The translations under genes and the position numbers were made by a program. From Octopus vulgaris (Eukaryota): a stretch of 64,000 nucleotides of DNA. The stretch lies in the NCBI GenBank assembly GCA_951406725.2, contig OX597815.1:58156001-58220000 (forward strand). Reading direction: 5' to 3'. Positions 7,858 to 62,400 of this stretch are shown here, one piece after another. The notes under the pieces are model-generated. The model searched no databases. It saw only the letters and a list, made by a program, of their open reading frames with translations, and was not told the DNA's origin. How positions within the stretch are numbered: position 1 is the first letter of the stretch; each line of letters opens with the position of its first letter.

Positions 7858-9040
7858 CAAATTGAGATAGGGGTTGTTAATGCAACCCACCATGGGATAC
7901 CATATATCCAATATACTGCTTGTGAGGTACCCAACAAAGTTAATACATAAATGTTAAGAATTGCGATGCAATTAATTCATTTATTGTATTATATGGGCAA
8001 AAGTAAAATGTTTTACCACAAATTCATAATACAAAATAAGAAAATGGAGAAATACATCAAAATCAAATATCAATTATCAGATAATACTCAATCACATACT
8101 TTATTAAACCACTACATAAGAAACCATAAGGTTAAACATAATAATGCAGGGTAAAACTGTGTACATGAAGGAGTGTACATAAAATAGTAATGTTATACAA
8201 TAAGGAGAATACGTATAATAGAACATAAATATAAGTACACATAAATATAATATCTTACAGCTGTTTCGGCCATGTAGATAAGCATGTCTCATTCAACTCA
8301 TATTAGCCATTTATGTTATTGACCTACCATAAATGGCTAATATGAGTTGAATGAGACATGCTTATCTACATGGCCAAAACAGCTGTAAGATATAGTCTAT
8401 ATTTATATTTATGTGTACTTATATTTATGTTCTACTAGCAGTATCGCCCGGCGTTGCTCGGGTTTGTAAGGGAAATAACTATATAAGCATTTTTAGAGAG
8501 TTACTTCCCTTATAGATGCCAATTCGGGCTTTCTTAGCCATTTCTGTTTTGGTGTCTTCAAGCCATGAAGTCGTTGTTCCAAAAGAACGCTGGTCTCCTT
8601 GACAACGCTTTACGACGTTGATTTCCTTACACTCCCTTCCCCACAGCTTCACGAGGGAGGGAAGAAGGGGGAGAAGCAAACAGGTGCAGGTGTGACCATG
8701 GACGCCAACTCCGCCGCCATCGACACATGAAAAATTATGCATTAAAATGGAATAAAAAATGATGTTAAATTATTTTTAAAATCGTAGACTCATCGTAGAC
8801 GCGCGCTAATACTCAGACGGGCTCACACAACTACAGTTTTATATATATAGATTATACGTATTCTCCTTATTGTATAACATTACTATTTTATGTACACTCC
8901 TTCATGTACACCGTTTTACCCTGCATTATTATGTTTAACCTTATGGTTTCTTATGTAGTGGTTTAATAAAGTATGTGATAGAGTATTATCTGGTAATTGA
9001 TATTTGATTTTGATGTATTTCTCCATTTTCTTATTTTGTA
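7858..9040. mobile_element. Inverted pseudo-LTR pair of a PLE related to 51025-56127, interrupted by a Helitron
   Basis: 7865-7960 is homologous to 51033-51130 (AGGGGTTG..CAACCCACCATGGGATA..ATATATCCAATATACTG); ~8030-8315 is the reverse complement of ~8328-8434 plus 8852-9040; contains the hammerhead 3' half GCCGAAACAGCTGTA on the minus strand near 8256-8270. Confidence 0.8.
8435..8851 (-). mobile_element. Non-autonomous Helitron
   Basis: Minus strand begins TCTATATATATAAAA and ends with hairpin CCCGAGCAACGCCGGG followed by CTAG; sits between A and T with no TSD; empty site visible in the opposite inverted arm. Confidence 0.88.
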
Positions 9041-9565
9041 TATGTATATGTATATACATATATATGTATATGTATATGATTATATATATATGTATATAAA
9101 TATATGTATATACATATATGTATGTTGTTATATTTCGGAATGGTCATTTTGCCAGTTTAGCCAATAAATATATATACACATATATATAATAATATATATA
9201 TACATATATATACATATATGTATGTATATATGTATATACATACATATATGTATATACATATATATGTATATATATATGTATATATGTGTATGTATATATA
9301 TATATATATATATATATATATATATGTATATATATGTGTATGTGTATGTGTGTGTATATATATATATATATATGTATATATATGTGTATGTGTATGTGTG
9401 TATATATATATATATATATGTATGTATATATATGTATATGTATATACATATGTATATATATCTATATATAAATGTATATATACATATATATATATATATA
9501 TATATGTATATATAAATGTATATAAACATATATACATATATATATGTATATATACATATATACAT

Positions 9566-59850: not shown

Positions 59851-60366
59851 TATATATGTATATATTTATATATATGTATATATATATATATGTATATATA
59901 TATATATATATATATATATATATATATATATATATATGTATATATATATATATGTATATATATATATATATGTATATATATATATATATATATATATATA
60001 TGTATATGTATATATATGTATATGTATATATGTATATGTATATATATGTATATGTATATATATATGTATATATATATATGTATATATATATATATGTATA
60101 TATATATATATGTATATATATATGTGTATGTATATATATATATGTATATATATATATATATATGTATATATATGTATAAATATATATGTATATATATATA
60201 TGTATATATGTATATGTATATATATATATGTATATATATATATATATATCGTATATATATATATATATATATATATATGTATATATATATGTATATATAT
60301 ATGTATATATATATATACGTATATATATGTATATATATGTATATATATATATATATATATATATAT

Positions 60367-62400
60367 ATCAACAATCAAGGAACGGCTATAATAGGCCATT
60401 CACCCACTAGAAATAACAGCCAAAAGCTTTAACCGCAAAATAACATTAATTCCGTAAACCAGGAGAAAATTGAAAAACATTTACCCTGTAATTTCTTAGA
60501 CGATGCACCGTTTCATCTACCGTTTAATGGTAAACTAACCTGATTAAATTAAATCAAGCCAATCCACCATAGGCCCTTAGACTCATCAGTAAGAAATAGC
60601 CAAGTCGGAACAGATATTTTTCACGAGGCATTCCTCTTGCTACCTCGGCAATATCTGACCTAAAATTTTCAAATCGTCGCACTCGCGCCAAATTTATCGG
60701 CAGCAAATAAATATAAGCCACTGATTCCATTACGGAACTAACCAGAAAATTCATAATTAATCAATATAGGGTGGCAAAAAAATTTTGTAGAATTCTTTTG
60801 CCACCAACGGCCTAGTGGGAAAAAATTAAATAGTCATAAACCATTTTTAAGTTCAACATCAACAATCAAGGAACGGCCATAATAGGCCATTCACCCACTA
60901 GAAATAACAGCCTATATTGATTAATTATGAATTTTCTGGTTAGTTCCGTAATGGAATCAGTGGCTTATATTTATTTGCTGCCGATAAATTTGGCGCGAGT
61001 TCGACGATTTGAAAATTTTAGGTCAGATATTGCCGAGGTAGCAAGAGGAATGCCTCGTGAAAAATATCTGTTCCGACTTGGCTATTTCTTACTGATGAGT
61101 CTAAGGGCCTATGGTGGATTGGCTTGATTTAATTTAATCAGGTTAGTTTACCATTAAACGGTAGATGAAACGGTGCATCGTCTAAGAAATTACAGGGTAA
61201 ATGTTTTTCAATTTTCTCCTGGTTTACGGAATTAATGTTATTTTGCGGTTAAAGCTTTTGGCTGTTATTTCTAGTGGGTGAATGGCCTATTATGGCCGTT
61301 CCTTGATTGTTGATGTTGAACTTAAAAATGGTTTATGACTATTTAATTTTTTCCCACTAGGCCGTTGGTGGCAAAAGAATTCTACAAAATTTTTTTGCCA
61401 CCCTATATTGATTAATTATGAATTTTCTGGTTAGTTCCGTAATGGAATCAGTGGCTTATATTTATTTGCTGCCGATAAATTTGGCGCGAGTGCGACGATT
61501 TGAAAATTTTAGGTCAGATATTGCCGAGGTAGCAAGAGGAATGCCTCGTGAAAAATATCTGTTCCGACTTGGCTATTTCTTACTGATGAGTCTAAGGGCC
61601 TATGGTGGATTGGCTTGATTTAATTTAATCAGGTTAGTTTACCATTAAACGGTAGATGAAACGGTGCATCGTCTAAGAAATTACAGGGTAAATGTTTTTC
61701 AATTTTCTCCTGGTTTACGGAATTAATGTTATTTTGCGGTTAAAGCTTTTGGCTGTTATTTCTAGTGGGTGAATGGCCTATTATGGCCGTTCCTTGATTG
61801 TTGATGTTGAACTTAAAAATGGTTTATGACTATTTAATTTTTTCCCACTAGGCCGTTGGTGGCAAAAGAATTCTACAAAATTTTTTTGCCACCCTATATT
61901 GATTAATTATGAATTTTCTGGTTAGTTCCGTAATGGAATCAGTGGCTTATATTTATTTGCTGCCGATAAATTTGGCGCGAGTTCGACGATTTGAAAATTT
62001 TAGGTCAGATATTGCCGAGGTAGCAAGAGGAATGCCTCGTGAAAAATATCTGTTCCGACTTGGCTATTTCTTACTGATGAGTCTAAGGGCCTATGGTGGA
62101 TTGGCTTGATTTAATTTAATCAGGTTAGTTTACCATTAAACGGTAGATGAAACGGTGCATCGTCTAAGAAATTACAGGGTAAATGTTTTTCAATTTTCTC
62201 CTGGTTTACGGAATTAATGTTATTTTGCGGTTAAAGCTTTTGGCTGTTATTTCTAGTGGGTGAATGGCCTATTATGGCCGTTCCTTGATTGTTGATGTTG
62301 AACTTAAAAATGGTTTATGACTATTTAATTTTTTCCCACTAGGCCGTTGGTGGCAAAAGAATTCTACAAAATTTTTTTGCCACCCTATATTGATTAATTA
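60367..62400. mobile_element. 491-bp tandem repeat, one hammerhead per unit (retrozyme-like): ~1.1 units minus (60367-60910), then ~3.0 units plus (60911-62400)
   Basis: Identical ORFs at 60927, 61418 and 61909 (491-bp period); near-identical units; TA-flanked. Confidence 0.92.
61084..61190 (+). ncRNA. Type I hammerhead ribozyme (copies 61575-61681 +, 62066-62172 +, 60491-60597 -)
   Basis: ATTTCTTA-CTGATGA-GTCTA...TAGAT-GAAA-CGGTGCATCG-TC-TAAGAAAT: 8-bp stem I, canonical core, palindromic stem III, GUC cleavage after 61182. Confidence 0.9.

Follow-up and report, generated by a model that had tools for sequence, protein, structure and literature searches.

Penelope-like elements (PLEs) carry inverted end-repeats with a one-sided extension (the tail), insert in AT-rich targets, and terminate at two positions inside an RNA that is read through, with a start in a stem-loop (PMC11167929; PMC3846280; PMC8557442; here and below, statements on published work refer to the available parts of each source). 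Only one full PLE protein has been studied in vitro (PMC11167929); in that work, a Poseidon protein cut and extended both target strands, began synthesis at two internal sites, which form the boundaries of the tail, and was predicted to be a dimer. How PLEs build tandem and inverted insertions was called an open question by Craig et al. (PMC8557442). Animal retrozymes that lack long terminal repeats (non-LTR retrozymes), which consist of tandem noncoding units with one type I hammerhead each, live beside PLEs (PMC7229834; bioRxiv 10.64898/2026.07.22.740005). Here, we analyzed a 64-kb stretch of the 2.8-Gb Octopus vulgaris genome (contig OX597815.1, positions 58,156,001 to 58,220,000; the window), which is dense in (TA)n and holds both retrozymes and PLEs. 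The insertions in it share the PLE features listed above, and the retrozyme elements carry an RNA signal, a stem followed by CT (stem+CT), in two copies. Ends that follow the downstream (terminal) copy are called long, ends that follow the upstream (internal) copy are called short, and no two-armed insertion that we examined had two like ends.

Four families of tandem noncoding repeats in the window, A, H, C, and D, had unit lengths of 491, 503, 507, and 584 nt, respectively. Each unit contained one type I hammerhead core (the helices of A were read by eye), the longest ATG frames were 44 to 66 amino acids (aa), and each family was dispersed, with at least 40 near-identical matches. Judged by these sequence features, A, H, C, and D are non-LTR retrozymes, although Rfam gave no match in the window at the gathering score. 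BLASTN detected no mutual similarity among the four full units, and comparison with 18 autonomous-family loci yielded matches only to separate neighboring insertions. Since no sequence was shared with the autonomous end-repeats, we did not class the units as nonautonomous derivatives of a named PLE family; in lacking a sequence match to the autonomous families examined, they differ from published retrozymes. An earlier note on this DNA had described the elements that share the 3' hairpin as otherwise unrelated, and this was correct at the BLASTN level for the four full units. However, a short upstream word is common to several families, and relatedness could be detected between some of them (e.g., B with the Q and K families).

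The nine hairpin-bearing termini listed in the earlier note were all located when element ends were read in the direction of each (TA)n block, with 5' edges that were off by 1 to 7 nt. At eight of the sites, 8 to 18 nt separated the final CT from the (TA)n downstream, whereas at 40595-40629 the distance was 0 nt. The latter site, described as a looser match, was present but had a different end type that belongs to family I, a 718-aa Hydra-type family. The ending ACCCT had been regarded as the signal, whereas our results indicated that the signal was a stem and then CT. For the chance comparison, we used 100 segments of 10 kb (1 Mb) from elsewhere in the genome, taken at round coordinates on 22 contigs. 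The descriptor (a stem G-R-T...A-Y-C that forms at least 8 of its 12 pairs, then CT, with the (TA)n start 3 to 25 nt downstream) was derived from the window sites but was written after an ACCCT-end survey of the same sample had been seen, so the test was independent of the window and not fully blind. Stem+CT preceded (TA)n in 19 of 46 matches, compared to a background of 3.4%, and stems without CT had (TA)n downstream in only 17 of 389 cases. With other pair thresholds, the counts of stem+CT at (TA)n were 24/191 (5 pairs), 20/72 (7 pairs), 12/22 (9 pairs), and 9/16 (10 pairs). When copies were clustered, 10 of 33 clusters were at (TA)n (p about 1e-7). The motif was found on 14 of 1249 TA flanks versus a mean of 0.75 (maximum 2) in 20 dinucleotide shuffles, and in 1 of 1025 flanks taken 110 nt further inward. 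Thus, the enrichment required both the stem and the CT. The AYCCT word alone was not enriched before (TA)n in the 1-Mb sample (65/2673; 2.4%), and for this reason a likeness of ACCCT to a telomere template was dropped. A few ACCCT ends that resembled terminal-inverted-repeat transposons were left out of the analysis, and the short end of the D insertion also ends in ACCCT. A loose descriptor for a three-way junction (35 matches, 10 at TA) also responded to much random sequence and was not used as evidence.

In 11 families, the second copy of stem+CT was located 90 to 109 nt upstream of the terminal one, and insertions also ended at this upstream copy; the earlier note listed only the downstream copy. 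We mapped retrozyme ends in 120 loci, which were fetched with queries upstream of both sites, and 97 rows remained after removal of duplicates. Insertion ends mapped 6 to 28 nt after either CT, at (TA)n, and the junctions varied by several bases within AT-rich, target-like tails. The 97 rows comprised 38 two-armed insertions with both ends on a site, 35 single-armed insertions (23 short and 12 long), 16 rows that ran off the locus edge, 7 two-armed insertions with one end elsewhere, and 1 single-armed insertion that ended elsewhere. All 38 two-armed insertions had one long and one short end; independent choice would produce at most half. Contigs from other sequencing runs also passed from unit A into (TA)n, at the short site in two runs and at the long site in one, but these runs were not recorded as RNA and cannot show RNA ends; no RNA run was listed as containing the sequence. 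A terminal-inverted-repeat DNA transposon was ruled out because the two ends differ and the junctions differ between copies.

The pairing rule extended to autonomous families. Among 20 family F loci picked on the long end, 18 had a second arm, and all 18 second arms were short. For a 717-aa family picked by endonuclease matches, 15 of 19 pairs were clean long plus short; the others were long plus near-short (2 pairs), long plus another end (1 pair), and long plus read-through (1 pair), and none were alike. The 838-aa family showed long plus short in 4 of 4 insertions, and in the window the count was 11 of 11 (one of which is also among the 38).

The two motifs are part of a predicted RNA fold of about 180 nt, and the hairpin described earlier corresponds to its 3' part. 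In the model, the 5' part consists of a short helix (P1), a side hairpin, a long helix (P2), and the internal stem with its CT. The 3' part consists of small hairpins, the closing strands of P2 and P1, one or two U residues, the terminal stem, CT, and an AT-rich tail. When A, C, and H were folded separately, they adopted one topology (z values of -5.5, -2.6, and -4.7, respectively) despite having no BLASTN similarity. RNAalifold, applied to a blind alignment of 12 ends, found only P2, and five of its six pairs were compensatory. Across eight P2 pairs, 90.6% of the cells were paired, a value that none of 500 shuffles reached; slid partners were paired in 18 to 52%. Additional comparisons were made in 11 families with hand-set anchors. 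Here, cognate P2 arms summed to -135 kcal/mol compared to -77 kcal/mol for permuted arms (p about 1e-5), and the internal stem was paired in 70 of 88 cells versus 47, with its first three positions paired in 11 of 11 families by several pair types. The terminal stem was paired in 77 of 88 cells versus 64.4, and its covariation was seen only with these anchors. The covariation expected by the earlier note was therefore found for P2 but not for the terminal hairpin on a blind alignment, and the data supported its proposal that Penelope-type elements with a hammerhead, inserted in (TA)n, have a conserved cis element with structure at their 3' ends. The suggestion that the signal defines RNA 3' ends was not, because tandem units and intact copies read through it.

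The PLE at 51-56 kb, family F, has one open reading frame (ORF) with a reverse transcriptase (RT) followed by a C-terminal GIY-YIG endonuclease. It resembles the Hydra clade of Craig et al. 2021 (PMC8557442) in the C-terminal endonuclease, the CxCx5C linker, DKT (in place of DKG), RW(K/R) (RWR for RWK in F), the hammerhead, and the (TA)n target, and on these features it is taken to belong to that clade. Its 960-aa frame and a 3' untranslated region of more than 2 kb set it apart from the published Hydra-clade elements, which are shorter than 3 kb. Naiad and Chlamys were ruled out as identities of F because the endonuclease is C-terminal and a hammerhead is present. Pfam returned no match for two F fragments and RVT_1 for an ORF at 31.4-34.1 kb, and the only animal-named homologue of the window's Penelope-like RT was from a cephalopod. 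The earlier note called F autonomous; in the window copy, about 190 codons are missing from the start and the frame is interrupted near 52271, but the family has intact 955- and 960-aa frames with YRDD and YIG elsewhere (L423 and L424). At the long end of F, (TA)n came next in 27 of 30 loci and 3 of 30 read through. An intact F copy reads through this site toward its ORF, which indicates that the sites are internal.

The hairpin common to F and the retrozymes proved to be the terminal stem+CT only. Family F has a clean terminal motif but no clean internal one, its two sites are about 165 nt apart, and the larger fold is not shared; thus, F is not established as the driver of the retrozymes. 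This genome contains at least seven Hydra-type families. The 717-aa family has stem+CT at neither of its sites, which are 67 nt apart. In the 838-aa family, the two sites are separated by about 84 nt and each has CT and an AAT tail, but the only stem is a small terminal one (four 3' stretches of this family did not reach the element end within 3 kb). We conclude that the long/short rule is general and that the stem+CT motif is not. In tblastn searches, Hydra-type ORFs were found in 3 of the 120 retrozyme loci (L308, L331, and L346), and the one in L331 was judged to be a separate neighbor.

Other features of Hydra-type families were also recorded. The 717-aa family is very young, with a 2590-bp unit, many inverted pairs, and tandem arrays, and its hammerhead core was altered in the copy that was read (L410). 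A 778-aa family (L161-L166) likewise has an altered core in the copies that were read, yet its intact ORFs are near-identical; its two end sites are about 150 nt apart. Of 36 hammerhead cores in marine-metagenome Hydra-type loci (L191-L230), 11 (about 8 distinct) had a GCTC/GAGC hairpin 40 to 70 nt downstream, compared to 4 of 890 background windows. The hairpin, with ACT after it, was seen repeatedly in Hydra-type elements from other marine animals, including those in supplement S7 of PMC8557442, and we found no description of it in the available text of that paper. Compensatory ACTC/GAGT and CCTC/GAGG versions lie between the two sites of the Hydra-type families in this genome.

Because like ends were never paired, the signal pair likely tells a Penelope-type enzyme where two DNA copies start. 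The explanation that we favor, and consider probable, is that the two stem+CT motifs mark internal start sites for two complementary DNAs (cDNAs) that a Hydra-clade Penelope RT makes from one RNA by twin priming. Tandem hammerhead units carry both motifs, and the predicted fold sets them at opposite ends of the P1/P2 helices, of which P2 covaries. The endonuclease would cut both (TA)n strands, and each free DNA end would prime in one of the AT-rich tails; the RT or the endonuclease may recognize the signal, as the earlier note proposed. The two cDNAs would then be joined at their inner ends, so that the insertion would be inverted head to head and would have one end of each type, long and short. 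Such priming of both cDNAs on one RNA would account for the lack of like-ended insertions. It would also account for two features of the 38 retrozyme insertions: in 19, the short arm extends beyond the 5' limit of the long arm by more than 25 nt, and in 6, the long arm does not go past the short site. The arms overlap by no more than 6 nt in 6 of 38. (Long arms stopped within -10 to +20 nt of the short site in 5 of 38 cases versus about 6% expected, a weak hand count on which we did not rely.)

Self-priming was proposed earlier for Penelope palindromes (PMC3846280), and a fold-back route, in which one cDNA from the long site snaps back, is copied to the short site, and joins the target, would yield long plus short directly, with the internal motif acting as a stop or resolution signal. 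In its favor are near-exact palindromic centers, which were seen in 11 of the 38 insertions of retrozymes and in 3 of the 18 of family F. However, copying back along the long cDNA would require later, one-sided deletion in the 19 insertions whose short arms hold sequence absent from the long arm and again in the 6 with minimal overlap. In addition, the short site is where 23 single-armed copies terminate, and the same motif is present in the same polarity at both sites. We therefore regard fold-back as unlikely. Recognition could instead take place on DNA, with the GIY-YIG endonuclease recognizing or cutting hairpins in the cDNA or genome and thereby setting both ends; the Penelope endonuclease of D. 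virilis is reported to require the tail for recognition (cited in PMC11167929), and Craig et al. (PMC8557442) attribute the tail to endonuclease resolution. This seems improbable given that the sense strand folds better than the antisense strand in 10 of 12 families, that G-U pairs occur in the stems, and that PMC11167929 places the tail at RT start sites.

Retrozymes have been described as highly self-paired circular RNAs (PMC7229834), so the fold might serve the RNA's own life (circle stability, processing, or transport), and annealing of AT-rich tails to (TA)n might be the sole reason that ends lie close to the motifs. The position and variability of the junctions would suit this idea. However, only 9 of 97 rows have a 3' end away from both sites even though the units are AT-rich throughout, and nothing in it would demand one end of each type; we give it slightly less credence than recognition on DNA. 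Palindromes can be misassembled, and the region is very TA-rich, but an assembly artifact or chance hairpins are scarcely credible: the shuffle and no-CT controls contradict them, a fold-back read would yield identical ends, which were never observed, and the contigs of other runs leave the unit at both sites.

Several observations weighed against twin priming or against the fold on which it draws. The base of the terminal hairpin shows almost no variation, and in a blind alignment of 19 sequences its stem was 45.8% paired, no better than shuffles, because the 5' arms were out of register. P1 appeared in only some single-sequence folds, and the families share ancestry, so that covariation counts are not independent events and are inflated by relatedness. 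The full fold was not found in any of the seven autonomous families examined, and the driving enzyme is thus assumed. The long/short rule also holds where a clean stem+CT is missing (the 717-aa family and the short site of F), which indicates that the motif is not needed for the rule. Furthermore, both arms start at nearly the same base in the insertions with near-exact palindromic centers, and such equal 5' ends fit fold-back or run-off from a shared RNA end alike; 10 of the 11 retrozyme cases are in family C, whose query adjoins a natural palindrome. Finally, the enzymatic step is ascribed to Hydra proteins by analogy with the Poseidon protein in vitro.

In LINE-1 twin priming, two target ends prime two cDNAs on one RNA, which results in an inversion; the first site is the poly(A) tail and the second is opportunistic. 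In the octopus elements, by comparison, the two sites have fixed positions that are marked by structure, and overlap between the arms is usual. The published PLE tail is 30 to 40 nt long and "optional" or "often at one end," whereas the spacing here was 67 to 165 nt and the extension was one-sided in every scorable case; moreover, each retrozyme site has its own stem+CT within a covarying fold, unlike the published tail. We found no 3' structure beyond the hammerhead described for the Hydra clade in the available text of PMC8557442. Nor did we find, in literature outside subscription papers, an account of the fold, of paired retrozyme start signals, or of Penelope twin priming. The one-sided tail is already in print, and the fold and the strict pairing rule were not found in print.

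The results provide an RNA module with covariation support and two predicted start positions per family, and the counted rule constrains any mechanism. The earlier case for animal retrozymes moving by Penelope machinery was co-occurrence and end-repeat similarity; insertion architecture and defined start signals, which we did not find in the available retrozyme accounts, add architectural evidence. The conserved double signal and the strict rule make the question raised by Craig et al. testable, and the presence of young, near-identical retrozymes and intact ORFs in one genome makes an experiment practical. A broader and more tentative idea, which we hold to be possible rather than probable, is programmed twin priming: one RNA would show two structure-marked starts to a dimeric RT-endonuclease, one strand per subunit, retrozymes would have converged on or inherited a portable module, and the cross-phylum GCTC/GAGC hairpin, located between the two sites of other Hydra elements, would be a second version of it. 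If so, the closest mobile relative of telomerase RT would have a defined RNA partner.

Table 1. Features of the window (positions are those of the window; long and short refer to end types)
Feature	Position	Strand	Remarks
Family F, Hydra-clade PLE	51025..56128		Inverted end-repeat 51025-51435 (minus); terminal stem+CT 51041-51060; short end 56128
Family F coding region	51436-53733	+	5'-truncated, frame-broken RT and GIY-YIG
Family F hammerhead core	55832		Helices read by eye
Family G, noncoding two-armed relative of F	7858..9036		82% over end; long left 7869-7896 (minus), short right
Family I, large two-armed insertion	34975..40629		Short left, long right (40595-40629); 718-aa Hydra-type family, different end type
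Family I stump	27173..27385		Short left, long right
Family I stump	57412..58068		Long left, short right
Long end, relative of 838-aa Hydra-type family	7611..7713	-	Small stem+CT 7622-7634; absent from earlier note
Retrozyme A insertion	60369..62402		(TA)n on both sides; left arm inverted, 60369-60910 (minus); 491-nt unit in three tandem copies (plus)
A, internal stem+CT at short end of left arm	60378..60401	-	Absent from earlier note
A, type I hammerhead of last unit	62074..62175	+	Core at 62074; end approximate
A, predicted outer fold	62227..62347	+	P1, side hairpin, P2; z -5.5
A, helix P1	62227-62231 with 62343-62347	+	Predicted
A, helix P2	62253-62260 with 62335-62342	+	Predicted; covariation
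A, internal stem+CT (P3')	62262..62285	+	Short ends 6-12 nt downstream
A, terminal stem+CT (P3)	62349..62386	+	Hairpin of earlier note; long ends 11-19 nt downstream
A, loose (TA)n ends in other runs	after 62296; after 62398 and 62401		Two runs; one run
Retrozyme H insertion	13256..14141		503-nt unit; hammerhead cores 13335, 13838
H ends	13273-13280; about 14084-14133		Short left (minus); long right, stem+CT
Retrozyme C palindromic stump	44557..44857		507-nt unit; long left, CT at 44567 (minus); short right 44843-44851
Retrozyme D palindromic stump	27805..28054		584-nt unit; short left 27815-27821 (minus); long right 27991-28037
Family E stump	37550..37768		Long left 37559-37605 (minus); short right 37745-37753
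Family B stump	45283..45418		Long left 45293-45353 (minus); partial short right 45403-45412

Directly after the (TA)n behind H, a hammerhead-like core was seen at 14190-14749 (plus strand), and no matching 3' fold was seen with it. At the family-J retrozyme locus L097, an older unit continues past the long site into the unit that follows, and an element resembling a short interspersed nuclear element is inserted just before the terminal hairpin (L097:8184-8546).

A second, unrelated Penelope-like ORF was identified at 31457-34123 (plus strand). Its 888-aa frame has DKG, YIDD, a CX4CxxC finger, and GIY-YIG at the C terminus, features that suggest that it is probably Neptune-type. In family F, a long asparagine-rich linker separates the RT and the endonuclease (52453-53300, plus strand) and resembles the N-rich inserts of rotifer Penelope ORFs (PMC3846280).

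The window also contains a minisatellite with a 63- to 67-nt period and higher-order repeats (16814-18536 and 9732-9894), which is associated with RT-bearing elements, and an assembly gap of 100 N at about 25908-26007. Copies of a long interspersed nuclear element with endonuclease and RT frames were located at 3405-6690, 41863-44498, 45523-47915, 49486-50866, and 63188-63961. These copies have one common 3' tail and are likewise located in (TA)n, and a sister family has a related tail.

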